NCBI GenBank assembly: GCA_904419955.1
Contig: CAJFTO010000009.1
Span: 4,298-68,297, forward strand
Reading direction: 5' to 3'
Origin: Candidatus Roslinia caecavium
GTDB lineage: Bacteria > Bacillota > Clostridia > Monoglobales > Monoglobaceae
Length of the DNA: 64,000 nt
Shown here piece after piece: positions 3,993-55,533 of the stretch (its first letter is position 1; each line of letters starts with the position of its first letter). The notes beneath the pieces were generated by a model. That model was not told where the DNA came from, did no database searches, and saw only the letters and a list, made by a program, of their open reading frames with translations. Position numbers and translations under genes: made by a program.

Positions 3993-5774
3993 TTAAGCCG
4001 CGCCGTCCGTTTGATAAGTATCGGTTTGGCTGTTGCCTGTTTGACTATCGTCCGTTTGATTGCCGTCAGTTTGACCATCGCCTGTTTGGCCGTTGTCCGT
4101 TTGGTTGACGTCTGTTTGACTGCTGTCCGTCTGACTGCCGCCTGTTTGGCCGTCGTCGGTTTGGCCGTCGTCCGTTTGAGCGCCGTCCGTTTGAGCGCCG
4201 TCCGACTGATAAATATCATAGACGTCGGTCAGCGGTCGTTGATTTTTATCCCATACGTACGCTTTTATAACTCCGCCGCCGTCGGGGAGTTCAAGCGTCT
4301 CGGATAGGATCGTCTCGGAATCCGAGCTAATCAGGGTCTCGTCGCATACCAACGAATACAACGCGCCGTTTTGGTCGAACGCGGCTAAGTATACCGTAGC
4401 GTTTACGTCCTTATACAGCGTGTTATTCAGCGTTAGCGCTACATTGGCGGAGGAAGGAGTCCCGGGGTCGATAGCGACGGACGAGCCGGCTATCCCAAAT
4501 TCTCCGCCGGACATGAAGTCGATTATTTTTTGTATATTAAGACAGCCCCAGCCGTATTCGACGTCGTAGCCCGTATCGCCAAGATCGTCCGAGCAGGCCT
4601 CGAGTACAAGGTTGAACTCGGCGGGGGTGATATACGGGTCGATCGACTTAGCTATAGCCGCCGCCGCGGCGACGTGCGGAGCCGCGTACGAAGTGCCCGA
4701 GCCGGTCGTATAAGAATTGTTCAAGGTAGAGCTGAATACGTCCACGCCCGGAGCGGTTACGTCCACTGTATAGTTATAATTTGAAGTACTCGCCCTAACG
4801 CCGGAAGAGGTCAGAGATCCCACGCCGATCACGTTGTCGAAACACGCCGGGGCGTTTATCTGGGAAGAATCCTGATTTCCCGCGGCGGCCACGCATATAA
4901 CGTTTTTTGACGTCGCGTAATCGACAGCTTCGCGCATGGCCGTCTGGTCGGCGCTCAATTCGTTATAGGCTATAGTGAAGCTGAGATTCAGGACTTCGCA
5001 GTCTAAGTCGTCTACCGCGACGTAGATCGATCTTGTTATGTAACCCAGAGAAGTCCTGCTTCCTGAGAACGCCTTTATCGGAACGATTGTAGCGTCCGAA
5101 CATCCGGCTATCCCGATTCCGTTGTTCGTCTCCGCGGCGATAATGCCCGAGACAAACGTGCCGTGCCGGTTATTGTCCGGTTCGGTATCGTAGGAATCGT
5201 TTATAACGTTATACCCTGTAGTAACGTTTGCGGACAGGTCGTCGTGAGAAGATTCGACTCCGCTGTCGATAACGCCGACGCGGACGCCTTCGCCGGTCTC
5301 GCCAGTAGTCCAAGCGTACGCCGCGCTCGCCATCCTCAGGTTCCACTGCCTGCTCGCATAGTACGGATCGTTAGGCTCAGGCAAGTCGTCCGAGAGAGTA
5401 GCGCTCTCGCCGGGCGTGGGAAACGCGTCGAGCCCGGTCTCGGGTTCGGGCGTCTCGTTTTCGATTATGTAGTTCTTGCATATATATTCAGTCTTTCCCG
5501 ACGCCTCAAGATAGTCTATATACTCCTCGGTCGGGTTTTTCAGAGTATATATATAATGGTTCGGAACAAGCTCGCCCCAGACGTTTATGTCGGAGTTTGA
5601 GTTTGTCGCGGTCAAGTCCGGTTCATACTGCTTGAATTTTACTATGTATCCGTCGTATTCGCCGCCGTTTTCGTCGATTTCATATGCGTATCCATTCACG
5701 CCGAAGATCAGCGTTATAGCCGCCGCAAGCGTAAGTAATAAAACGCAAAGGGCGCTATTGGTTGTTTTTGTCAC
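3993..5774 (-). CDS. secreted subtilisin-like serine peptidase (S8) with a C-terminal pentapeptide-repeat tail
   Basis: Signal-like N-terminus. Catalytic triad contexts GVIDSGV (Asp), HGTFVSG (His) and GTSYAAPHVA (Ser). Tail of 13 xxxQT units. Confidence 0.9.
   Translation of the reverse strand: MTKTTNSALCVLLLTLAAAITLIFGVNGYAYEIDENGGEYDGYIVKFKQYEPDLTATNSNSDINVWGELVPNHYIYTLKNPTEEYIDYLEASGKTEYICKNYIIENETPEPETGLDAFPTPGESATLSDDLPEPNDPYYASRQWNLRMASAAYAWTTGETGEGVRVGVIDSGVESSHDDLSANVTTGYNVINDSYDTEPDNNRHGTFVSGIIAAETNNGIGIAGCSDATIVPIKAFSGSRTSLGYITRSIYVAVDDLDCEVLNLSFTIAYNELSADQTAMREAVDYATSKNVICVAAAGNQDSSQINAPACFDNVIGVGSLTSSGVRASTSNYNYTVDVTAPGVDVFSSTLNNSYTTGSGTSYAAPHVAAAAAIAKSIDPYITPAEFNLVLEACSDDLGDTGYDVEYGWGCLNIQKIIDFMSGGEFGIAGSSVAIDPGTPSSANVALTLNNTLYKDVNATVYLAAFDQNGALYSLVCDETLISSDSETILSETLELPDGGGVIKAYVWDKNQRPLTDVYDIYQSDGAQTDGAQTDDGQTDDGQTGGSQTDSSQTDVNQTDNGQTGDGQTDGNQTDDSQTGNSQTDTYQTDGAA
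4008..4202. repeat. 13 tandem 15-bp units encoding (D/G)xxQT in the S8 protease tail
   Basis: Plus strand shows a periodic ..gtccgtttg.. every 15 nt. The translated tail is DGAQT DGAQT DDGQT DDGQT GGSQT DSSQT DVNQT DNGQT GDGQT DGNQT DDSQT GNSQT DTYQT. Confidence 0.9.
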
Positions 5775-5820
5775 GCGTTTTCACCATCCAATATTTTGTA
5801 TGCGACGCGTGAGACAGAGG

Positions 5821-8085
5821 TTACTCAGCGTCGAATGTGTAAACTCTGCATGTAAAGTCTCCGAACAGAGCCGGGTTTGGATTGGTCTCGTCATAGTCGT
5901 ATTTTTGGATTATGAGACCGTGATTGATCAGCTCGTCTCCGTTCACGGCCGTATCGTAGCATTGAGTTCCATTTAATGATACTACATAACGACTGTTTTC
6001 GTCAAGTCCAATTAATGGAAGTTTGTCGAAGCCCATATTGACGTCGTTTAGGATCTTATAATATCCTAAGACCGCGCGTTTCTTATCGGGGGATACCGAC
6101 ATCCACGCGACCGTGTTGCCGTCGCTGCCGGTCAACTCCTTGTAAGAGGGCGCTCTGAGTCTGTAAAAGTCGCCGAACTGAAGGAGTTTTCGGTTCTTTT
6201 TCATAAACGCGATCTGCGCTCTTACCTTTTCTTTCTCGGCGTCCGAGAGCTTAGCCAGATCCAGCTCGTAGCCGAACGCGCCGAAATAGGCTACCGCCGC
6301 CCTCGTGTCGATGCTCGTAGTCCTTGAAAGCTGGTGGTTGGGCACGGCCGAGACGTGCGCGCCCATCGAGCAGACCGGGTATACGAGCGAGGTGCCGTAC
6401 TGTATTTTAAGGCGTTCTACGGCGTCGGTGTCGTCGCTCGTCCAGCCCTGCGGCGCGTAGTAGAGCATGCCGGGATCGAACCGGCCGCCGCCGCCCGCGC
6501 AGGACTCGAAGAGTATGTCGGGGAACGCGGTCGTCAGGCGTTCGTACAGGTCGTATACGCCGAGGATGTATTTGTGGATAACCATTCCCTGATAATCCGC
6601 GTCGTTACCTCTTGAGAATACATGGCTCATATTTCTGTTCATATCCCATTTCACGTAGGACAGATTTATCTCCGAAAAGAGCTTATAGAGCGCGTCGTAT
6701 ATATAGTCTACGACTTCGCGCTTTGAAAAGTCGAGTATGAGCTGATTCCTGCAGAGCGCAGGCTCCCTGTCCAGGGTTCCGAGGACCCAGTCCGGATGAT
6801 TGCGGTACAGCTCGCTGTCCTTGTTCACCATCTCGGGCTCTATCCAAAGTCCGAACATCAAGCCCATATCGTTTATCTTTTTAGACAGTCCGGTAAGCCC
6901 GCTCGGCAGCTTTTCTTTATTCACGAACCAGTCGCCCAGCGATGAGGTATCGTCGTTGCGTTTCCCGAACCAGCCGTCGTCCAATACGAAGAGTTCGACG
7001 CCGAGCTCCTTGCCGGTCTCGGCTATGCCGAGTATCTTCTCCTCGTCGAAGTCGAAGTAAGTCGCTTCCCAGTTATTGAGCAGGATCGGGCGTTCCCTGT
7101 CCCGCCATTTTCCGCGCGCGAGCCTGTTTTTGAACAGGTCGTGAAACTGACGGCTCATGCCGTTCAGACCGCCGCGGGAGTAGACCATGACGGCCTCGGG
7201 CGTCTGAAATTCCTCGCCCCGCTTCAAAGTCCAGCGGAAGTTTTGAGGATTTATACCGAGCTGAACGCGGGTCACGTCGTAGGTGTCCACGTCGGCGGAG
7301 ACTAAGAAATTGCCGCTGTAGACCAGGCTGAAGCCGTAGACCTCGCCCGAGAACTCGTCGGTATTCGGCCTTTTAAGCGCCATGAACGGGTTAAAATGGT
7401 GGCTGCTCGCCCCGCGCAGGCTCTGCACGGACTGGGAGCCGTAGCCGAGCTTTCTGATACTTATATTCCGCTCTCTCGCCCACGCGCCGCAAAGCGTTAC
7501 CATATCAAAGTTGCAGTCCGGCAGATCGAGATTTAAGCTCATAGCGCGATTTAATTTGACGGGATCGTCGCCTTCGTTTACGATCCTTGCGCTTCTGGTT
7601 ATCGCGGCGTAATCTCTGAATATAGTATAGCTCAGCTCGACGCCGCATTTTATTACGTCGTCGTAGAGGAGTATTTCAAGCGTGTCCGCCTCGTCTTCGC
7701 TTTCGACGTAGGCGGCGGGGAGTCCGCTCAGCGGTTTTTTACCCTTATATATTTCGTGGGAGCGGTATTTGAAATCGGTCGCGAAGCATCCGTTTTGAGA
7801 TACAATCTCGACGGCGGGGTTTCTCATATCGGTGTTGCCGCAGGACGGGTATTCCTGCTTGATATGTTCTAACGTATAGGCAAACTCCGTCTGTTTTGAC
7901 ACGGACGAGAACGGGCGCAGCTCGTTCTCAAACATATGCGAAAACGAATCGCAGTGTCTAAGCCTCTTCCCGAAATAGAGCTGAGCCAGGTCGCCGCTCG
8001 GCAAGACCGCGATTATATAGCTTACGTTGTCGTTAAATAGATGAAACTCGGTTGAGTTTTGGTTTTGGTTGCAAATAATAGGCAT
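5821..8085 (-). CDS. alpha-galactosidase, GH36 family
   Basis: ORF 5821..8160. The ATG at 8085 (MPIICNQ) has AAGGAG 7 nt upstream. GH36 hallmarks YVKWDMNRNM and CAGGGGRFD. Confidence 0.9.
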   Translation of the reverse strand: MPIICNQNQNSTEFHLFNDNVSYIIAVLPSGDLAQLYFGKRLRHCDSFSHMFENELRPFSSVSKQTEFAYTLEHIKQEYPSCGNTDMRNPAVEIVSQNGCFATDFKYRSHEIYKGKKPLSGLPAAYVESEDEADTLEILLYDDVIKCGVELSYTIFRDYAAITRSARIVNEGDDPVKLNRAMSLNLDLPDCNFDMVTLCGAWARERNISIRKLGYGSQSVQSLRGASSHHFNPFMALKRPNTDEFSGEVYGFSLVYSGNFLVSADVDTYDVTRVQLGINPQNFRWTLKRGEEFQTPEAVMVYSRGGLNGMSRQFHDLFKNRLARGKWRDRERPILLNNWEATYFDFDEEKILGIAETGKELGVELFVLDDGWFGKRNDDTSSLGDWFVNKEKLPSGLTGLSKKINDMGLMFGLWIEPEMVNKDSELYRNHPDWVLGTLDREPALCRNQLILDFSKREVVDYIYDALYKLFSEINLSYVKWDMNRNMSHVFSRGNDADYQGMVIHKYILGVYDLYERLTTAFPDILFESCAGGGGRFDPGMLYYAPQGWTSDDTDAVERLKIQYGTSLVYPVCSMGAHVSAVPNHQLSRTTSIDTRAAVAYFGAFGYELDLAKLSDAEKEKVRAQIAFMKKNRKLLQFGDFYRLRAPSYKELTGSDGNTVAWMSVSPDKKRAVLGYYKILNDVNMGFDKLPLIGLDENSRYVVSLNGTQCYDTAVNGDELINHGLIIQKYDYDETNPNPALFGDFTCRVYTFDAE

Positions 8086-46380: not shown

Positions 46381-46409
46381 TTGACATTATTCGAGCTTTA
46401 GTATATAAT
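46381..46409 (+). promoter_or_regulatory. perfect-consensus sigma-A promoter ahead of the DpnI-like cassette
   Basis: TTGACA (46381-46386), 17-nt spacer, TATAAT (46404-46409). Confidence 0.6.
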
Positions 46410-46519
46410 AATATATGATTGGAGTGCATGATTATGAAATATATATCGGCAAGAGATGCAGCTCAAAATAGGTGCTAAAATGGTTGTAATTAATGCAAAC
46501 AGACAAGGAGCGAAATTGT

Positions 46520-47290
46520 ATGAACCTTGCGTTTGATAATAATATTATTGAAACTTATCATTCAAGAACACAAATAGCACGAGTATTGACGGAAAATTGG
46601 GTAAATGAAAATATGTATTGTCCACGATGTGGAAATTCACATATCAAACATTTTGAGAACAATCGTCCTGTTGCGGATTTTTATTGTCCTACTTGCAATA
46701 ATGAATATGAATTGAAGAGCAAAGATGGAACTTTAGGTCATAAGATAAACGACGGTGCTTACAGTACGATGATTGAAAGAATAACGGGTAACAATAATCC
46801 TGATTTTTTCTTTATGAGTTATTCAAAACAAGAGCTAAAAGTAAAAAATTTTATTTTAATTCCCAAACACTTTTTTGTTCCTGATATTATTGAAAAACGA
46901 AAACCATTGGCACCGACTGCACGTCGTGCCGGCTGGATTGGTTGCAATATTTTGATTGACAAAATCCCTGAACAAGGGAGAATTGATATAATATCAAATG
47001 GTGAAATAGTAAACATAGAGTATGTTATAAATAAAGTAAATAAAAGCAATCGACTTGAAACAAATGATATAAATAGCCGCGGTTGGCTTATGGATATTTT
47101 GAATTGTGTTAATAATATGTCATCAAAGACATTTACATTAGAAGAAATGTATCAATTCGAGAATGTATTGCATATCAAACATCCTAAAAATAATAATATC
47201 AGACCTAAAATAAGACAGCAGTTGCAATTTTTAAGAGATAAAGGATTTATTGAGTTTTTAGGTAATGGTCAATACAAAAAAATAGTTTGA
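46520..47290 (+). CDS. DpnI-family methyl-directed (type IIM) restriction endonuclease
   Basis: ATG 46520 has AAGGAG 9 nt upstream. Collinear with my recollection of S. pneumoniae DpnI: ETYHSRTQIARVLTENWV, CPRCG, FENNRPVADFYCPTC, YELKSK, INDGAY, KPLAPTARRAGWIGCNI, RQQLQFLRDKGFIEF. Confidence 0.85.
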   Translation: MNLAFDNNIIETYHSRTQIARVLTENWVNENMYCPRCGNSHIKHFENNRPVADFYCPTCNNEYELKSKDGTLGHKINDGAYSTMIERITGNNNPDFFFMSYSKQELKVKNFILIPKHFFVPDIIEKRKPLAPTARRAGWIGCNILIDKIPEQGRIDIISNGEIVNIEYVINKVNKSNRLETNDINSRGWLMDILNCVNNMSSKTFTLEEMYQFENVLHIKHPKNNNIRPKIRQQLQFLRDKGFIEFLGNGQYKKIV

Positions 47291-47299
47291 GGTGCTACT

Positions 47300-47500
47300 A
47301 TGAAGAAATATACAATTGCGATAGAAGAAACCGTTGTAGATCAATTTGAAATAGAAGCAAATGATTTTATTGAGGCTATAGATATTGCAAAAGAAAAATA
47401 TCGTAAAGGTGAGCTTGTAGTTTCTCCTGGAGAAGTGCAATTCAGACAAATTGCTGTAATATCACCATCTTGTGATTGTACTGAATGGAGTGAATTTTAA
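47300..47500 (+). CDS. DpnD/PcfM-like small protein
   Basis: 66 aa, starting 10 nt after the DpnI-like stop, with RBS GAGGTG. Pattern MKKYTIAIEETVVDQFEIEANDFIEAIDIAKEKYRKGELVV resembles the DpnD/PcfM family. Same position as dpnD in the pneumococcal DpnI cassette. Confidence 0.6.
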   Translation: MKKYTIAIEETVVDQFEIEANDFIEAIDIAKEKYRKGELVVSPGEVQFRQIAVISPSCDCTEWSEF

Positions 47501-48156
47501 TTCATGACGCCAAATGGCGCGGGAATTGGTCGCCTTATATCCCAAGAAATATTATACTTCGATATTCTAAAGAGGGAGAGCTTGTATTAGATCAATTCGC
47601 CGGCGGCGGCACTACTCTTATTGAAGCGAAGCTTTTAAATCGGGATATAATCGGCGTTGATGTAAATGATGCGGCGCTTGACAGATGCAGAGAAAAAACA
47701 GATTTTGATTATGAACCTGCGAAAGGAAAAGTGCATATAAAAAAAGGCGATGCAAGAAATCTTGATTTTATACACGATGATAGTATTGATTTAATATGTA
47801 CGCATCCGCCGTATGCGAATATTATCAAATACAGCGACGGAATTGATGGAGATTTGTCACAATTAAAAATTAAAGACTTTCTTGGAGAAATGAATAAGGT
47901 TGTAGCTGAAAGCTATCGGGTGCTTAAAAATGACAAGTTTTGTGCTGTTCTGATGGGTGATACACGTCAAAAAGGACATATGATACCGATGTCTTTTGAG
48001 GTGATGCGTATTTTTGAGGATGCGGGGTTTAAATTGAAAGAGCTGATCATAAAAGAACAGCATAATTGCAAGGCAACAGGGTATTGGAAAACAAATAGCG
48101 TGAAATATAATTTTTTGCTGATTGCACACGAGTATTTGTTTGTGTTTAGAAAGTGA
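47494..48156 (+). CDS. SAM-dependent amino-methyltransferase (DNA N6A/N4C type) without a canonical start codon; possibly frameshifted or 5'-truncated
   Basis: The frame is open from 47494. Motif I VLDQFAGGGTTLIEA, then GVDVN and GDARN, motif IV CTHPPY. The first in-frame ATG/GTG/TTG is GTG 47731, downstream of motif I. ATG 47504 is in a different frame and stops after 24 codons. Confidence 0.55.
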   Translation: MLIHDAKWRGNWSPYIPRNIILRYSKEGELVLDQFAGGGTTLIEAKLLNRDIIGVDVNDAALDRCREKTDFDYEPAKGKVHIKKGDARNLDFIHDDSIDLICTHPPYANIIKYSDGIDGDLSQLKIKDFLGEMNKVVAESYRVLKNDKFCAVLMGDTRQKGHMIPMSFEVMRIFEDAGFKLKELIIKEQHNCKATGYWKTNSVKYNFLLIAHEYLFVFRK

Positions 48157-48166
48157 GGTGCGAACA

Positions 48167-48940
48167 TTGAATTTTATACATCATGATTTAGGTAATCTTG
48201 AAAAAGGAAGAATAGTTGAAATTGTTCTTCAAGGAAATGCTGCAAATGTGCAGCTATTAGACTCATCAAATTTTAGCAGTTATAAAAACGGAAAACGCTA
48301 TCGTTATATAGGAGGACTTGCGAAAAAATCTCCAATTCGTTTACAAACAACGCATTATAGCCATTGGCATGTAGCGGTTGATCTGCGCGGATTAGGTGGT
48401 AATGTGAAAAGTTCTGCCCGTGTTTTGCCCAAAGCTCTACCAGCAATCAATCAACAACCATTAGCTTCGATGCCTTCTTTACTACATAATCGCGGTTTAG
48501 GGATAGATGTGGACGTTGATATCGAACCAGAGTACGATGTTTTCATATCTCATGCTTCAGAAGATAAGGATGCAGTGGTGCGCCCTTTAGCTAACGCTTT
48601 GCGAGACAAAGGCATAAAAGTGTGGTATGATGAATTTGAAATGAAAATTGGTGACAGTCTGCGAAGAAAAATAGATAAAGGTCTTGCAAACAGCCGGTTT
48701 GGTATCGTGGTTATATCTAAAGATTTTATTAAAAAAGGCTGGACTAATTATGAGTTAGATGGTATTATTACCAAGGCTATATCAGGAGAACAGATCGTAC
48801 TCCCAATTTGGCACAATATTACCAAAAAGGAGGTAATTGATTTTAGCCCTTCTTTGGCAGATAAATTAGCTCGTAATACGGCTATCAACACTATTGATGA
48901 GATCGCTTCGGAAATAGCTGACTTAATTCAATCGGCATAA
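48167..48940 (+). CDS. DUF1883-like N-terminal domain fused to a TIR domain
   Basis: TTG 48167 follows GTGAGGTG, 10 nt after the methyltransferase stop. The N-terminus reads NFIHHDLGNLEKGRIVEIVLQGNAANVQLLDSSNF..YIGGLAKKSPIRL..HWHVAVDL. TIR hallmarks are YDVFISHASEDKD, VWYDEFEMKIGDSL, GIVVISKDF and WTNYEL (candidate catalytic Glu). Confidence 0.8.
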   Translation: MNFIHHDLGNLEKGRIVEIVLQGNAANVQLLDSSNFSSYKNGKRYRYIGGLAKKSPIRLQTTHYSHWHVAVDLRGLGGNVKSSARVLPKALPAINQQPLASMPSLLHNRGLGIDVDVDIEPEYDVFISHASEDKDAVVRPLANALRDKGIKVWYDEFEMKIGDSLRRKIDKGLANSRFGIVVISKDFIKKGWTNYELDGIITKAISGEQIVLPIWHNITKKEVIDFSPSLADKLARNTAINTIDEIASEIADLIQSA

Positions 48941-49076
48941 CCTACAGATAGAAAGGAAAGCCAAAATTATTACATCCATTATTCAACAAAGTCTGAAAAT
49001 TTAATGGGTCTATCCCGTATTTTGGAGTTTGCACAAAACGCGGGATAGATCCTCCAAGTGTGAAAAAACGCGTATA

Positions 49077-49247
49077 TTATTGCTTCTTACACCCGTTCTT
49101 TTCGCATGTAATAGCTTGAGGTGTTTCAACCCAATCTTCAGGATTATCATCTATTCTGGCGCCACAACCAGTATAATTTCCTTTTCTTACATGAATTTTG
49201 CCATTTTCAGACTTGCTTGTGTCTTTTCCGATATATTTTATGTTCAC
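49077..49247 (-). CDS. 56-aa Cys-containing small protein of unknown function
   Basis: GTG start 5 nt after GGGAGGTG. Sequence VNIKYIGKDTSKSENGKIHVRKGNYTGCGARIDDNPEDWVETPQAITCEKNGCKKQ. Below the ORF-track cutoff. Convergent with the TIR gene. Confidence 0.5.
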   Translation of the reverse strand: MNIKYIGKDTSKSENGKIHVRKGNYTGCGARIDDNPEDWVETPQAITCEKNGCKKQ

Positions 49248-50395: not shown

Positions 50396-51235
50396 TTGAA
50401 AATCATAACAGTTGAATTGATAGAAAATTTCAAAAATTTTTTATTTAATGAAGAAAAGGCGTTTGCAACTATTGAGAAATATGTGCATGACGTATTGAAT
50501 TTTAAAATGTGGCTATCGGGATCTGTCGTCACAAAAACAGAAGTGTTAAGATATAAGCGAGTATTAACAGAAAAATATGCGCCAACAAGCGTTAATTCTA
50601 TTATATCTTCTCTGAACAGCTTTTTCTCATATAACGAATGGTACGAATGTAAAGTTAAAACGCTTAAAATTCAACGACAGATTTTTATTAGTAAAGATAG
50701 AACGCTTACTAAAGCCGAATATGAAAGACTGCTTGCCGCGGCAAAGTATAAGGGGGACGAAAGACTATATTTACTTATGCAAACAATATGCTCTACGGGT
50801 ATTAGAGTTTCTGAATTGCGATTTGTGACAGTAGAAGCTGTTAAAAGCGGTCAGGCGATTATTAGCTGTAAAGGAAAATTGCGAGTAGTAATGCTTACAA
50901 GATTACTTTGTAAGATGCTTAAAGCTTATATAAAGGAAAATAAAATTAAACGCGGTCCTATTTTCATTACAAGAACAGGGAAACCGTTAGACCGTAGTAA
51001 TATATGGAAATTATTAAAAGGTTTATGTGAAAGAGCCGGCGTTTCAAAGAATAAGGTGTTTCCGCATAATTTGCGCCATTTATTCGCAAGAACATTTTAT
51101 TCATTACAAAAAGATATTATTAGACTTGCAGATATTCTTGGACACACAAGCGTAAATACAACCCGAATTTATACGATAGAAAGCGGAGAAGTTCACAGAC
51201 AACAGATGCAAGAACTTGGACTATTGAGATGTTAA
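50396..51235 (+). CDS. tyrosine site-specific recombinase (XerC/D-like integrase/invertase)
   Basis: 279 aa with a TTG start 10 nt after AAGGAG. SAM-like N-domain. Catalytic contexts TGIRVSEL (Arg), HNLRHLFA (His-x-x-Arg) and LGHTSVNTTRIYT (His...Tyr). Confidence 0.85.
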   Translation: MKIITVELIENFKNFLFNEEKAFATIEKYVHDVLNFKMWLSGSVVTKTEVLRYKRVLTEKYAPTSVNSIISSLNSFFSYNEWYECKVKTLKIQRQIFISKDRTLTKAEYERLLAAAKYKGDERLYLLMQTICSTGIRVSELRFVTVEAVKSGQAIISCKGKLRVVMLTRLLCKMLKAYIKENKIKRGPIFITRTGKPLDRSNIWKLLKGLCERAGVSKNKVFPHNLRHLFARTFYSLQKDIIRLADILGHTSVNTTRIYTIESGEVHRQQMQELGLLRC

Positions 51236-51237
51236 AT

Positions 51238-51267
51238 AAATTAACTACATAATTTGTCTTATGTTGT
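51238..51267. repeat. IR-L, 30-bp perfect inverted repeat arm
   Basis: aaattaactacataatttgtcttatgttgt. Begins 3 nt after the recombinase stop codon. Confidence 0.9.
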
Positions 51268-51452
51268 ATAAATGGTTAAACTATATGTAATTGCACTTTA
51301 TTAATATAGCAGAAATTTGTCGCTTTGTCAATAATTAGAGTTTAATTTAAAGAAATTTATTTAAATATTACAATAATAGATGCAAAAATCCAGACCAATG
51401 TAATAAGCGATAAGCTTCATTGGTCTAAAAGTCGTTATTGTTGTTGCTTATC

Positions 51453-51481
51453 TTGCTTTATTCGCAATATTGAGATATAAA
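51453..51481 (+). promoter_or_regulatory. promoter-like element inside the IR-bounded segment, currently facing the downstream operon
   Basis: TTGCTT (51453-51458), 17-nt spacer, TATAAA (51476-51481). Confidence 0.35.
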
Positions 51482-51507
51482 ATTATATTTTTTATAACGT
51501 CAACTTA

Positions 51508-51537
51508 ACAACATAAGACAAATTATGTAGTTAATTT
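51508..51537. repeat. IR-R, 30-bp perfect inverted repeat arm
   Basis: acaacataagacaaattatgtagttaattt is the exact reverse complement of 51238..51267. Confidence 0.9.
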
Positions 51538-52175
51538 TATGTTTTTTTAATATTATATATCGAACATTATATAAATTGGGGAAAAATTGAATTTTCGGTA
51601 TTAATATAAAAACGAAGATATTATAATACTATTGATGTAATATTAACTAAGTAGGAACTATATAAATAAATATTTTAGGAGTTTAATGAATATATATATA
51701 AATTTAATATTTATTAGACGAATTTTAGATATAATTTATATGACGTTTAACAGCATATTTTGTTTATATTAGTATAAAAAAGTTTTTAATAGCAACTGAA
51801 TTTAGAATGTCAGCGATTTTATATGGGTTGACTGCATATACGGTAAATACGCTAATAATATGATTAAAATGCAATTTAGGTTTAAAGATCTTAATAAATA
51901 AGAATAGAGTTGCTATGAAGACTGCTTTTTAGATTATAGATGAAAATTATGACGCATAACAAACTTTTTGGTGTATGGGGGATTACGCAAAATGTTTATT
52001 GCTGTATTTATACTGAGCTTTATATAAAAACAATTATACTGTGAAAGTCGTTATGCAGTCAAAGGTAGTTGAAAATGAATAATCTGATGAGTTGATAAAA
52101 TATAACAATCAAGAGCCTTATTAATAGAGTTTTAAAAACTGATTTGGTTTATTGGTTATTTGGAGAGGTTGGCAT

Positions 52176-52850
52176 ATGAAATTCAGAAACGAGTTAAAAC
52201 ACCATGTTACAGAATTTGATTTAATTGGACTTCGGCAAAGATTAAAGTTTATTGCTGAAAGAGATATTCATGCAAATGAAAATGGGATATACACCGTTAA
52301 AAGCTTATATTTTGATAATTGCTACGACAAAGCTTTAGTGGAAAAAATAGCGGGATATTCTAAAAAAGAAAAGTTTAGAATCAGATACTATAACGACGAT
52401 ACAAGTTTTATTCGCTTAGAGAAAAAAAGCAAGATCGGAGGAATGTGTTTAAAGAATAGTTGTTTAATTACTAAAGAGCAAGTAGATAAAATTATTGATT
52501 TGGATGTTTCTTGGATGGAGTTTGCTGAAGAGGAATTATTGGTTGAACTCTGGGCGAAAATGCAGTACCAATTATTGCGTCCTAAAAATATTGTTATATA
52601 TACAAGAGAGGCTTATACCTATAGGCCTGGGAATGCTCGTGTGACAATCGACTCTGATATATACGGAGAAAGCGATATTACGGGATTTTTTGATGACGAC
52701 TGGACGGGTATCAGAGTATTTCCAATGAGCATTTTGGAAGTAAAGTGGGATGAATTTTTACCTCAAATTATCAGGGACGCCGTTCAACTTGGTAATATTC
52801 AAGCACAAAATTTTTCAAAATATGCTGCGGCAAGAGTCGATGCATTTTAA
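52176..52850 (+). CDS. VTC-domain (polyphosphate polymerase / triphosphate-tunnel-like) protein
   Basis: ATG 52176 has GGAGAGG 7 nt upstream. MKFRNELKHHV..YTVKSLYFDN..KEKFRIRYYNDD..ILEVKWDEFLPQIIRD..FSKYAA matches bacterial VTC-domain proteins as I recall them. Confidence 0.75.
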   Translation: MKFRNELKHHVTEFDLIGLRQRLKFIAERDIHANENGIYTVKSLYFDNCYDKALVEKIAGYSKKEKFRIRYYNDDTSFIRLEKKSKIGGMCLKNSCLITKEQVDKIIDLDVSWMEFAEEELLVELWAKMQYQLLRPKNIVIYTREAYTYRPGNARVTIDSDIYGESDITGFFDDDWTGIRVFPMSILEVKWDEFLPQIIRDAVQLGNIQAQNFSKYAAARVDAF

Positions 52851-52916
52851 TATACGACAATTGGAACAGAAACGTTGAGTATATAATATGTTAAATTTAT
52901 GAGGGAGGATAAAAAT

Positions 52917-53597
52917 ATGACGACGTTTAATGACATTTTTAAATCGGATTTTTTAAATTCAACAAATTTGAACAGTTTTTCAGTAGTAGACACGCTGATT
53001 GCACTTGGGTTAGCGTTTGTTATAGGTATTTTTATATATCTTATATATAAGAAAACTTATAAAGGAGTTATGTATTCGGCGACTTTTGGAGTTTCGTTGC
53101 TGGCGATGTCTATGATTACGACGTTAGTTATATTAGCGGTAACCGCTAATATCGTTCTCTCTTTGGGTATGGTTGGCGCGTTGTCGATTGTTAGATTCAG
53201 AACGGCGATCAAGGAGCCGATGGATATAGCGTTTCTTTTTTGGGCGATCGCGGCCGGTATAGTATTAGGTGCGGGATTTATCCCTCTTGCTATTATAGGC
53301 TCGGTTATCATAGGCGCGGTTATTCTTATTTTTGCCAATATAAAAACAATTGGAGCGACGCCGTATATACTTATTGTAAATTGTGCGTTTCAAGCCGAAC
53401 GCAACGTTAATTATGTTATAAAACAGGAGTCTCGCAAATATCTTCTAAAATCAAAAACAGTTACCCCAAAAGGTTTAGAGTTGACATACGAAGTAAGAAT
53501 TCGAGATAAAGAAGCTTACGCTGTGAATAAATTAATAAATTTAGAAGGCGTAGGGAACGCCGTCCTGGTTAGCTATAATGGAGAATATATGTCATAG
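52917..53597 (+). CDS. DUF4956-family membrane protein
   Basis: ATG 52917 follows GAGGGAGG. Multiple TM helices. Family-typical LSIVRFRTAIKEPMDIAFLFWAIAAGI. Confidence 0.7.
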   Translation: MTTFNDIFKSDFLNSTNLNSFSVVDTLIALGLAFVIGIFIYLIYKKTYKGVMYSATFGVSLLAMSMITTLVILAVTANIVLSLGMVGALSIVRFRTAIKEPMDIAFLFWAIAAGIVLGAGFIPLAIIGSVIIGAVILIFANIKTIGATPYILIVNCAFQAERNVNYVIKQESRKYLLKSKTVTPKGLELTYEVRIRDKEAYAVNKLINLEGVGNAVLVSYNGEYMS

Positions 53598-53610
53598 TTG
53601 GAGTTGTATT

Positions 53611-55533
53611 ATGTTAGGATCAAAAAAATTTGAAAAAATAATAGTATGGCTTGTGATTATGGCGTTGGTTTTTTCATTGGTTATAGTATGTTTTCCAAAT
53701 ATATTTTCTCGGATTTCAAAAGATAGGATTGAAGAAGAGTATCCGGTTAAGATTTTTGAAAAAGACGTCGTTAATATAAAAATTACGGCTGATGAAAACG
53801 ATTGGAATGGCATGCTGGAAAATCGAATGTCAAAGCCCTATATCTCATGCGATATAGAAATCGATGGAAAAGAATTTAAAAATGTCGGATTGAGACCGAA
53901 GGGAAATTCAAGTTTAACGAGTATTCAGGGAGACAGAATAAGCTATAGATTGGACTTCGATCATTACATCGATAATCAAACTTGTTACGGCTTGGAGCAA
54001 ATGGCTTTGAATAATTTACAAGCCGACGCCACATATATGAAGGATTATATCGCTTACGATTTGATGGCATATGAAGGCGTAAACGCACCGCTACATACAT
54101 TTGCGTTTATAACGATAAACGAACAGCCTTTTGGAGTTTATCTGGCGGTCGAGGTATATGACGAAGACTATTTGTCAAGAGTTTACGACGATATAAATAT
54201 TGAGCTATACAATGTAAAAAATTCGGGTATGGATGAGTTTGAAAACGCGATTGTCGATCCTGAAACCGGCACAGTGATAGAATCTCAGGGGGTAGGAGAA
54301 GTTATGAATATGGGCGGTCCAGGCGGGCCTCCGCCGCAGGGCGGTCCCATGCCGCCTGGGGGTCAGTCTCCTATGCCTCCGCCAAACGGGCAAGTTCCTG
54401 ATGCGGTCGGTATGCGGGCGCCAAATGAGGAAAACATACCACAACCGCCTCCGGGGTCTGAAAGTGGAGGCGGAGATTTAGTTTATGTTGACGACTCAAC
54501 AGAAAGTTACAGCGCTATATTTGCAAACGCAGTCTCCAAGCGCGCGAATGCAGAAGATTTTGCAAGAGTTATTAGAGCGATAAAATATTTAAATAAAGAA
54601 AACGTCTCTAATGAAGAGTTAGAACAATACTGGGATATCGACGCTGTATTAAGATATTTGGCGGTTCACGCTTTTATGGTTAATGGCGATAGTTATACAG
54701 GTAATATGATGCAAAACTATTTTTTAGCTGAGCGAGACGGTAAGATTACTATTCTACCGTGGGATTATAATTTATCGTTCGGCGCGTTTGGAGGAGGTCC
54801 GGGCGGCGCGCCTCCTGAAATGCAGATTGATAGCGACAAGATTGTCGGATCTGATGTTGAAACAGCTCAAGTAAATAATGAAACGATAGAGGCAATAAAT
54901 CATCCCATAGACACGCCCACCATAGGGGTATCTATGGAATCAAGACCGCTCGTTTCAGTTTTGCTGAGCAGGGACGATTATAAGGAAAAATACCATCAGT
55001 ATTTAGATGAATTAACTATATATGCGTCGGGCGATTTTATTAACAAACTTGAAGCGGTTGAAAAGGCTATCTATCCGTATATTGAGAGAGAAACGGTTTC
55101 TTTCTTTACGCCCGAAGAACATAAAGAGGCCTTTAAAGTATTGAAGGATTTTTTAGAACTTCGTTGCCGAAGCATTCAATGCCAACTGAATGGAGAAATT
55201 CCGTCAGAATTGGAGCTACAGAATGGCGCTGATTTAATAACTGCAGATTTTTCTATTAGCGAGATGGGATCTATGGGCGGACCGGGAGATATGCTGCCGG
55301 GAGAAAATGGAGAAGGCGCAATGGCTCCGCCGCAGCCGCCGGGAGAAAATGGACAGGGCGTAATGGCTCCGCCGCAGCCGCCGAATGACGATGGTCAAGG
55401 AGGAATGGTTCCGCCGCCGGGTATGTCTGGAACGATGCAAAATGAGAGTAATAATGATATTACAATCGCGATTGCTTTAGTTATTTTATGCATCATGTTT
55501 ATTGGCGTTAAATTATTTAAGCGAAATTACTAG
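53611..55533 (+). CDS. CotH-family atypical kinase, N- and C-terminally membrane anchored, with two Pro/Gly-rich inserts
   Basis: ATG 53611 has GGAG 7 nt upstream. N-terminal anchor. CotH-like IDGKEFKNVGLRPKGNSSL..YRLDFDHY..LNNLQADATYMKDYIAYDL. Pro-rich tracts near 54300-54480 and 55264-55440, the latter with a 42-bp tandem duplication at 55300-55383. C-terminal TM. Confidence 0.75.
   Translation: MLGSKKFEKIIVWLVIMALVFSLVIVCFPNIFSRISKDRIEEEYPVKIFEKDVVNIKITADENDWNGMLENRMSKPYISCDIEIDGKEFKNVGLRPKGNSSLTSIQGDRISYRLDFDHYIDNQTCYGLEQMALNNLQADATYMKDYIAYDLMAYEGVNAPLHTFAFITINEQPFGVYLAVEVYDEDYLSRVYDDINIELYNVKNSGMDEFENAIVDPETGTVIESQGVGEVMNMGGPGGPPPQGGPMPPGGQSPMPPPNGQVPDAVGMRAPNEENIPQPPPGSESGGGDLVYVDDSTESYSAIFANAVSKRANAEDFARVIRAIKYLNKENVSNEELEQYWDIDAVLRYLAVHAFMVNGDSYTGNMMQNYFLAERDGKITILPWDYNLSFGAFGGGPGGAPPEMQIDSDKIVGSDVETAQVNNETIEAINHPIDTPTIGVSMESRPLVSVLLSRDDYKEKYHQYLDELTIYASGDFINKLEAVEKAIYPYIERETVSFFTPEEHKEAFKVLKDFLELRCRSIQCQLNGEIPSELELQNGADLITADFSISEMGSMGGPGDMLPGENGEGAMAPPQPPGENGQGVMAPPQPPNDDGQGGMVPPPGMSGTMQNESNNDITIAIALVILCIMFIGVKLFKRNY

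Follow-up and report, generated by a model that had tools for sequence, protein, structure and literature searches.

A DUF1883-TIR gene of Candidatus Roslinia caecavium belongs to a large mobile family and most likely encodes a self-contained NAD+-cleaving defence protein

A 64,000-nucleotide stretch of the Candidatus Roslinia caecavium contig CAJFTO010000009.1 (positions 4,298 to 68,297, hereafter the window) carries a gene encoding an N-terminal DUF1883 domain that is joined through a linker to a C-terminal TIR domain. Sequence comparison, structure prediction and analysis of genomic context suggest, with moderate confidence, that its product is most likely a self-contained TIR NADase (an enzyme that cleaves nicotinamide adenine dinucleotide, NAD+) of the AbTir/BtTir/TcpB clade, acting as a single-protein abortive-infection defence. 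The defence role is most likely in view of the genomic context, and DUF1883 is most likely the regulatory or trigger-binding module, by analogy with the Bacillus subtilis protein SpbK and from the modular distribution of the domain. The gene itself is in no way exceptional within its family, which is very large, highly mobile and already catalogued.

A preliminary description of the window, made from the letters alone, had reported an open reading frame (ORF) for a stand-alone DUF1883-TIR protein at this position, and an intact gene with both domains was indeed confirmed (Table 1). An alternative in-frame TTG, with which the listed ORF begins, lies upstream at 48122; the start given in Table 1 is favoured because the homologues, with lengths of 254-261 aa, have their first residue at the corresponding position. 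The ribosome-binding site overlaps the stop codon of an upstream methyltransferase remnant. The identical protein was found in 112 indexed blocks of the assembly collection, and the gene context was the same in all 23 contigs that were read; therefore, the gene and its surroundings are not an assembly artefact. A scan of one genome per species yielded 66 full-length loci, of which 62 were used for alignment and neighbour counts. Compared with the window protein, these 62 sequences have a median identity of 60% in DUF1883, 38% in the linker and 80% in the TIR domain, and the median ratio of non-synonymous to synonymous substitution rates (dN/dS) is 0.06, 0.17 and 0.03, respectively. The gene is thus functional, and the family is under strong purifying selection in both domains (dN/dS 0.03-0.06).

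The enzymatic part of the proposal is carried by the TIR domain. Pfam TIR_2 matched aa 125-219 (E 2.8e-22), with TIR_2 and TIR together covering aa 123-236 (TIR E 2.6e-16), and a sequence search of the PDB returned AbTir (E 3e-57), BtTir (E 4e-55), BtpA/TcpB (E about 1e-45) and PdTIR (E 2e-44), the PDB and Pfam domain matches being far above chance level. Among the PADLOC models, the TIR part matched PDC-S66 (E 3e-75), the ThsB1 model PDLC00417 (E 4e-45) and RT-TIR_XII (E 1e-19). An AlphaFold2 (AF2) model of this part, with a predicted local distance difference test score (pLDDT) of roughly 80-88 except in two loops, adopted the flavodoxin-like TIR fold. In Foldseek comparisons with 7UXR, 3H16, 4C7M and 7UWG, it gave template-modelling (TM) scores, normalised to the target, of 0.88-0.96, with root-mean-square deviations (rmsd) of 1.0-2.6 Å and 52-62% identity, whilst plant and animal TIRs ranked far below the bacterial clade. 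Intact TIR hallmarks had been claimed at the outset, and the predicted fold, compared with known TIR NADases, bears this out. The two motifs singled out at that time, DVFISHASEDKD and WTNYEL, occupy aa 124-135 and aa 192-197 (48740-48757), respectively, and the glutamate of the latter, proposed to be catalytic, aligns with AbTir E208 and is at least 97% conserved in the family.

Detailed comparison with AbTir, whose numbering is that of the query plus 12, extended this correspondence over the whole active site. The TIR domain is ~61-62% identical to those of AbTir and BtTir, and AbTir E208, W204, T205, G174, S176, L177 and R178, as well as D182, K202, S143, W227, A243 and K245, are identical in the query. 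The residues of the BB-loop, BE interface and adenine contact, taken as AbTir G174, S176, K202, W227 and K245, are matched by G162, S164, K190, W215 and K233, which like the other AbTir-equivalent residues are at least 97% conserved among the 62 sequences, neighbours of the S164/L165 type being conserved too. Of the alignment positions, 88 are at least 97% conserved in the family, and the query has the consensus residue at every one of them. In AbTir, the E208A variant is inactive, identifying E208 as catalytic; W204A lowers the output of 2' cyclic ADP-ribose (2'cADPR), W204 being needed for cyclisation; mutation of T205 lowers activity, and G174A and S176A abolish it or nearly so (bioRxiv 10.1101/2022.05.07.491051). 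The same study demonstrated that AbTir, BtTir and TcpB all produce 2'cADPR from NAD+. The identity of ~61-62% to characterised enzymes strongly suggests that the window protein would likewise cleave NAD+ to nicotinamide and 2'cADPR, the latter as the predicted main product.

The N-terminal domain was confidently assigned to DUF1883 by Pfam (PF08980, E 1.2e-33, 115.3 bits against a cut-off of 26, model positions 1-88 of 89), in agreement with the preliminary description, although it comprises ~89 aa rather than ~95, and the linker that follows, correctly noticed, is ~30 aa long (aa 90-120) and not ~40. A PDB sequence search matched the DUF1883 protein Atu1913 (2B1Y, E 1.7e-15), and AF2 modelled the domain alone with a pLDDT of 94. 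Foldseek returned only weak matches in the PDB (E 0.014 or worse, TM ~0.5), to jelly-roll domains such as GOLD, a collagenase collagen-binding domain (PPC-type), CBM36 and PirA, which are binding modules and not enzymes; 2B1Y was absent from these matches despite its sequence similarity. A cupin-like HxH...D metal site was considered and rejected, as H66 and H68 vary among stand-alone members, in which only W67 is invariant and D72 nearly so. The linker, modelled with a pLDDT below 50 across aa 90-120, contains in its first half a conserved Pro/Leu motif (L87, P88, L91, P92, L99, P103, S104 and L105), the residues of which are conserved at 94-100% except for L87 (77%), compared with 18-76% at adjacent linker positions.

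The domain is distributed in a modular fashion. A search of 1.84 billion cluster representatives gave 859 DUF1883 clusters, and among the best 150, which were classified, 68 are stand-alone proteins of ~90 aa and 34 are TIR fusions. Other partners are few, namely a caspase-like protease (Peptidase_C14), on seven contigs, and a double zinc ribbon. In the former (P0239; L092, 5001-6308), DUF1883 forms the C-terminus of the protein, and the zinc-ribbon fusions are represented by P0155 and P0158. On a 5.4-kb ColRNAI plasmid of Klebsiella (L096, 1855-2799), a stand-alone DUF1883 gene lies 18 nt upstream of a nucleotidyltransferase-like gene and adjoins a divergent WYL regulator; a tblastn run-on had raised the possibility of a split DUF1883-TIR gene on this type of ColE1 plasmid, which was rejected since the next gene encodes the unrelated nucleotidyltransferase. 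In the literature searched, DUF1883 is still without an assigned function, as the preliminary description had stated, and searches for DUF1883, PDC-S66 and WP_001159650 retrieved no functional study. With regard to the suggestion that DUF1883 is a sensor or oligomerisation module, a separate, strongly constrained and modular domain would fit a regulatory or binding role.

Clustering of the four genes on each side of the 62 loci provided the evidence on partners. The commonest neighbour family, HsdS, was present at 11 of the 62 loci and none exceeded this number, and a conserved partner or multi-gene system was accordingly rejected. A single-protein effector, one of the two roles proposed beforehand, fits well with the absence of a conserved partner in loci from at least eight phyla, and by genomic inference the gene shares with SpbK-like single-protein systems the property of being one gene with no conserved partner. 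Subunit genes of type I restriction-modification (R-M) systems lie within four genes at 12 of the 62 loci; at about six of these loci, the arrangement is M-S-(TIR and other cargo)-R. Other immediate neighbours encode BsuBI/PstI endonucleases, N6/N4 methyltransferases, AAA_21 and AAA_15 ATPases, SAVED, GmrSD, RloB and ThsB-type TIR proteins, and CD-NTase (SMODS) genes occur within four genes at three loci. The DUF1883-TIR gene thus resides in defence islands and has no fixed partner. A 125-aa "Bflower" gene downstream was examined as a candidate partner and discarded, being found at four loci only and absent from the window. In a group of loci from Lachnospiraceae and Coprococcus (L010, 6992-10011; also L011, L012 and L071), the DUF1883-TIR gene is the first in a row of TIR genes, which comprises genes for a 162-169-aa ThsB-like protein, an unknown protein of 159 aa and a 395-aa protein matching the ThsB1 model PDLC00426 (E 1.6e-115).

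Combining these data, a plausible mode of action can be drawn. In the uninfected cell, the protein would be held inactive. A trigger may act through the DUF1883 beta-sandwich, the conserved Pro/Leu motif of the linker or both, upon which the TIR domains would cluster head-to-tail through the BE interface to form composite active sites. E196 would then cleave NAD+ to nicotinamide, 2'cADPR and ADP-ribose (ADPR), with W192 directing cyclisation, and the loss of NAD+ would arrest the infected cell. Several points weigh against this scenario. The searchable literature holds no activity, toxicity or phage-resistance data on any DUF1883-TIR protein. Recognisable defence or R-M domains are encoded by about one third of the immediate neighbours, among which there are also a few housekeeping genes, for example those for ribonucleotide reductase and thymidine kinase; the location in defence islands is suggestive, not proof. 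Foldseek gives only weak matches for DUF1883, so that a binding role is tentative, and the domain is unusually conserved (dN/dS 0.06), while a sensor of fast-evolving phage proteins would, by our own reasoning, be expected to vary more. An alternative is that DUF1883 might serve constitutively in oligomerisation or as a scaffold, or might respond to a conserved host-side cue. Finally, 2'cADPR could be a signal instead of a by-product, and one of the loci has a canonical ThsA gene next door.

The last point leads to the possibility that the protein is a ThsB-like signal generator, the dispersed half of a Thoeris-like system, in which 2'cADPR or another ADPR isomer would activate an effector encoded elsewhere (ThsA-type SIR2-SLOG or Macro) and the protein itself would not kill by NAD+ depletion. 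We regard this as possible, albeit unlikely. The product is a TIR-domain protein whose TIR part matches the ThsB1 model PDLC00417, and in Ulvibacter litoralis DSM 16195 (L049, 7001-9997) the DUF1883-TIR gene lies 222 nt upstream of genes for ThsA and a ThsB. At four or five loci of the Lachnospiraceae type (L010-L012 and L071 being identified) and on the plasmids examined, ThsB-type TIR genes likewise adjoin it, and 2'cADPR activates some ThsA proteins, though only at high concentration. However, a ThsA-like gene is adjacent at that single locus out of 62, and the window gene has no adjacent thsA encoding a SIR2-SLOG or Macro effector. The ThsA and ThsB of L049 and a Macro query, run with phmmer, a single-sequence search of limited sensitivity, found no match among six-frame ORFs of the 64-kb window even at E 10; a Pfam scan of the ORFs at 46-62.6 kb detected no SIR2, SLOG or Macro domain, and no ThsA gene was present within 14.7 kb at L010. 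Moreover, the TIR domain is not close to the BcThsB type, 6LHY being absent among its PDB matches, and the authors of the AbTir work concluded from comparative genomics that AbTir functions separately from Thoeris. A role outside phage defence appears very unlikely, be it in the decapping of NAD-capped RNA, in NAD+ homeostasis, in the maintenance or competition of plasmids or transposons, or as a Tcp-type factor aimed at a eukaryotic host, which has been proposed for TcpB/BtpA and TcpC. Its closest characterised relatives do include BtpA/TcpB, described as an immunosuppressor, AbTir-type TIRs strip nicotinamide from NAD-capped RNA in vitro (PMC10937652), and Tn3-family transposition genes adjoin the gene on the clinical KPC plasmids examined. 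Nevertheless, neither a signal peptide nor a secretion context was found, and the family occurs in free-living Flavobacterium, Hymenobacter, Syntrophomonas, Omnitrophota and other taxa that are not host-associated. The patchy distribution and the mostly defence-type neighbours also argue against such roles, and the conserved antitoxin-like neighbour that an addiction module would need is missing.

Coupling to the adjacent R-M genes, either as an effector arm or as a guard set off by a block of restriction, comparable to PrrC and the EcoprrI restriction system, is the least probable of the readings considered. Speaking for this idea, the gene in the window follows a methyltransferase remnant at the end of a DpnI cassette (Table 1) and may be co-transcribed from the dpnI promoter. 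In the different species represented by L001 (guaA 63% identical at the DNA level), a DpnII cassette lies likewise downstream of guaA, in the order (5015-7990 compared) Dam-type methyltransferase, DpnII, 248-aa DpnA-like methyltransferase, TIR gene and "Bflower" gene, with the TIR gene, 95% identical, beginning 10 nt after the DpnA-like methyltransferase gene. Positions 47499-48983 of the window align to L001 from codon 30 of that methyltransferase gene to 43 nt past the TIR stop codon. The remnant in the window, whose frame has no ATG, GTG or TTG before 47731 and which the PADLOC MTase_II model matches only from position 110 of 249, shows 79% nucleotide identity to the intact L001 gene, and the TIR gene ~92%. 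The cassette breakpoint thus falls inside the DpnA-like methyltransferase gene, at 47499, and the alignment indicates that a DpnI cassette replaced a DpnII cassette, leaving a dead methyltransferase remnant and keeping the TIR gene. DpnI cuts methylated GATC, as known from the Dpn systems of Streptococcus pneumoniae, so that loss of the methyltransferase was necessary if the lost enzyme methylated GATC.

This exchange, which left the TIR gene unaffected and more conserved than its flank, does not support the earlier suggestion that the protein is the effector arm of the upstream cassette. Nor does locus L002, where the identical protein is encoded among unrelated genes, with no R-M gene nearby and only 130 nt of the methyltransferase 3' end upstream; together, the cassette swap and the L002 placement argue against functional dependence on the cassette. 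An obligate link to the Dpn cassette was rejected, because it is only in the L001-L006 lineage that the TIR gene follows a methyltransferase gene or its remnant. At the level of the family, the 12 loci with nearby type I genes, about six of them with the TIR gene between hsdS and hsdR, and several others adjoining type II enzymes could be read in favour of R-M coupling, but the partner type varies by locus (type I, DpnII, DpnI, BsuBI/PstI, GmrSD or none), about two thirds of the loci have no adjacent R-M gene, and the stretch between hsdS and hsdR is a general landing site for many defence genes. A broader and quite unlikely idea would treat DUF1883 as a portable sensor of a conserved cue rather than of a fast-evolving phage protein, the cue being a host-side state, such as failure or inhibition of R-M, or a conserved nucleotide or ligand, coupled to different death effectors: the TIR domain here, the caspase-like protease P0239 and possibly the nucleotidyltransferase on the WYL-regulated ColE1-type plasmid. 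As part of this speculative scheme, DUF1883-TIR proteins in or near type I and type II R-M clusters might guard restriction like PrrC, via NAD+ depletion, with the Pro/Leu motif as an autoinhibitory latch. The self-contained NADase remains the reading that we prefer.

The family is remarkably widespread. A word-indexed homologue search gave more than 7,800 matches, and the best 120, which were checked, all have the same architecture at 72-95% identity, with Campylobacter, Desulfosporosinus, Mesotoga and Syntrophomonadaceae among their hosts. The 66 loci come from Bacillota, Bacteroidota, Omnitrophota, Cyanobacteriota, Ignavibacteriota, Verrucomicrobiota, Sumerlaeota, Actinomycetota and Alphaproteobacteria, full-length relatives being present in at least eight phyla. 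Full-length copies of ~65% identity are present in 114 records of the plasmid collection, mostly from Klebsiella, Escherichia coli, Citrobacter and Enterobacter, the plasmids often being conjugative and many carrying KPC. In the three records that were examined, which are KPC-carrying or related plasmids, a Tn3-family transposase gene (tnpA) and resolvase gene (tnpR) adjoin the DUF1883-TIR gene. The plasmid allele WP_001159650 is a 65%-identical DUF1883-TIR protein (L089, 5876-8768, from E. coli pKPC-bca9; L090, from an Aeromonas caviae plasmid). Beside it in the records examined are a gene for a 235-aa membrane protein with two transmembrane segments and a divergent gene for a ThsB-like TIR protein, which carries a frameshift in one record and is disrupted by an insertion sequence in the other; ISKpn6 and, in one case, blaKPC-2 adjoin the locus. 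Full-length DUF1883-TIR was not found in phage genomes, where the relatives have TIR only or a coiled coil with TIR. One of them, from Klebsiella phage ST405-OXA48phi1.3 (L097, 2126-3004), is a 292-aa protein encoded near tail genes, whose TIR is of the same clade and 59% identical over aa 96-255; this prophage protein probably corresponds to the AbTir/PDC-S66 architecture.

The architecture is less new than the preliminary description implied, since DUF1883-TIR is already listed among the predominant bacterial TIR architectures (PMC9153377, Fig. 1A). Existing labels are "DUF1883 domain-containing protein" in RefSeq and "ADP-ribosyl cyclase/cyclic ADP-ribose hydrolase" in UniRef. As its enzymology is predictable, the single gene adds little, and the interest attaches to the uncharacterised family, which is among the commonest bacterial TIR architectures, is unusually conserved over at least eight phyla and is carried both in genomic islands of gut commensals and on plasmids of clinical Enterobacterales. 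Once known, the trigger of DUF1883 would reveal how so widespread a module for NAD depletion becomes active, and carriage of DUF1883-TIR might affect phage therapy or plasmid spread in KPC-producing strains.

Table 1 Features of the DUF1883-TIR locus in the window (domain and motif positions in aa refer to the DUF1883-TIR protein).
Feature	Position	Strand	Details and basis
Perfect consensus promoter before dpnI	46381..46409	+	Promoter scan
DpnI-type methyl-directed restriction endonuclease	46493..47290	+	Pfam DpnI E 4.5e-83, DpnI_C; PADLOC mREase_II E 2e-106
DpnD-like gene	47300..47500	+	Pfam DpnD-PcfM
DpnA-like N6/N4 DNA methyltransferase remnant, 5'-truncated	47499..48156	+	~30 codons and start codon missing
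Promoter-like site TTGGAA-16-TATAAT, inside 3' end of methyltransferase remnant	48084..48111	+	Consensus scan; predicted
Ribosome-binding site GAGGTG	48155..48160	+	6 nt 5' of TTG; read from sequence
DUF1883-TIR protein, coding sequence	48167..48940	+	257 aa, TTG start, TAA stop
DUF1883 domain, 8-strand beta-sandwich and one short helix	48167..48433	+	aa 1-89; Pfam, 2B1Y, AF2
Conserved Pro/Leu motif, first half of linker	48425..48481	+	aa 87-105; column conservation, 62 sequences
Variable acidic second half of linker	48482..48526	+	aa 106-120; conservation 18-58%
TIR domain, AbTir/BtTir/TcpB/PdTIR clade	48527..48937	+	aa 121-257; PDB sequence search, Foldseek
BB-loop G162-D163-S164-L165-R166 (AbTir G174-R178)	48650..48664	+	Alignment; at least 97% conserved
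WxxxE: W192 (AbTir W204), E196 (AbTir E208)	48740..48754	+	Alignment; both at least 97% conserved

A stretch of low GC content lies downstream of guaA in the window; the gene is found where this stretch begins, next to the DpnI cassette. Complementary exchange of DpnI and DpnII cassettes is known from S. pneumoniae, and the exchange seen here (46381-48156), in a gut anaerobe, resembles it. The homology to L002 begins at 48037, so that the promoter-like stretch inside the remnant is shared with the TIR gene at that unrelated locus. The genes further downstream are unrelated and encode a recombinase, VTC, DUF4956, CotH and kinase/phosphatase proteins. An Rfam scan of 41-56 kb gave nothing at gathering thresholds, and no convincing att-like direct repeats bounding the island were found. 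A 236-bp segment at 48984-49219 is bounded by 17-nt inverted repeats (88% complementary); it starts where the homology to L001 and L002 ends (48983), overlaps a 56-aa Cys-rich ORF on the minus strand (49077-49247) and takes the position at which relatives carry the "Bflower" (PF21784) gene, and may be a small insertion or replacement. Further on, a 240-nt segment lies between two perfect inverted repeats of 30 nt (51238-51267 and 51508-51537), in a region (51-52 kb) of only 25% GC. A tyrosine recombinase gene (50396-51235) immediately precedes the repeats, and a VTC/DUF4956/CotH operon (52152-55533) lies downstream of them. The stretch from 50396 to 51537 has the anatomy of an invertible, phase-variable promoter switch.

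Several known systems can be compared with the protein. AbTir of Acinetobacter baumannii (7UWG, 7UXU and 8G83) and BtTir of Bacteroides thetaiotaomicron (7UXR) share the TIR fold, and the likeness to AbTir predicts the same chemistry, from NAD+ to nicotinamide and 2'cADPR, through a filament-like assembly at the BE interface. The difference lies in the N-terminal module: AbTir and BtTir have ~130-155 aa before the TIR domain (the constructs start at 134 and 156, respectively), which in the Klebsiella prophage homologue is a clear coiled coil, whereas the window protein has the 89-aa DUF1883 beta-sandwich and the Pro/Leu linker motif. TcpB/BtpA of Brucella (4C7M, 4LQC and 4LZP) and PdTIR of Paracoccus (3H16) belong to the same clade (52-57% identity, TM 0.76-0.96 normalised to the target, WxxxE present) but have other N-regions and were studied as host-directed virulence factors; the window protein, in contrast, has no secretion context, and its family resides in defence islands and mobile elements. 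SpbK, an abortive-infection protein encoded on ICEBs1 of B. subtilis, is built from an N-domain of 94 aa, a linker of 18 aa and a TIR domain, and binding of its N-domain to the multimeric phage portal leads to TIR clustering and activation of the NADase (PMC12847820). Being encoded by one gene on a mobile element, SpbK offers the best precedent in mechanism for a TIR NADase triggered through an N-domain, although this N-domain is a 4-helix bundle, the TIR is of another clade and the products are ADPR and N1-cADPR; no sequence similarity between SpbK and the window protein was detected.

Thoeris ThsB is likewise a TIR protein of defence islands, and one DUF1883-TIR relative adjoins ThsA and ThsB, the two forming in L049 a canonical type I Thoeris pair (ThsA with SIR2 and STALD/SLOG, 478 aa; ThsB, 188 aa). 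The N-domain of the window protein, however, lies outside all ThsB models, and its TIR is of the AbTir and not the BcThsB (DUF1863) type. PADLOC PDC-S66 shares the TIR clade, but the match is confined to model positions 144-281 of 282, leaving the N-terminal 143 positions unmatched, so that it is not a full-length one. The retron-TIR type XII model (NCBIfam NF042941) is matched by the TIR part only, at 109.5 bits against a curated cut-off of 600, and the window protein has no reverse-transcriptase domain; its N-terminal part is unrelated to those of both PDC-S66 and retron-TIR. Stand-alone DUF1883 proteins, such as Atu1913 (2B1Y) and MrpB of Clostridioides difficile, are ~90 aa long, 40-61% identical to the N-domain and share its conserved AANV, GG, SP and W...D positions, but are without an effector domain; MrpB is linked to phase variation of colony morphology and to cell division, not to defence (bioRxiv 10.1101/2025.08.20.671228). 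Overall, the same TIR clade is combined with interchangeable N-modules, namely DUF1883, a coiled coil (the prophage protein and AbTir) and a reverse transcriptase (retron type XII).

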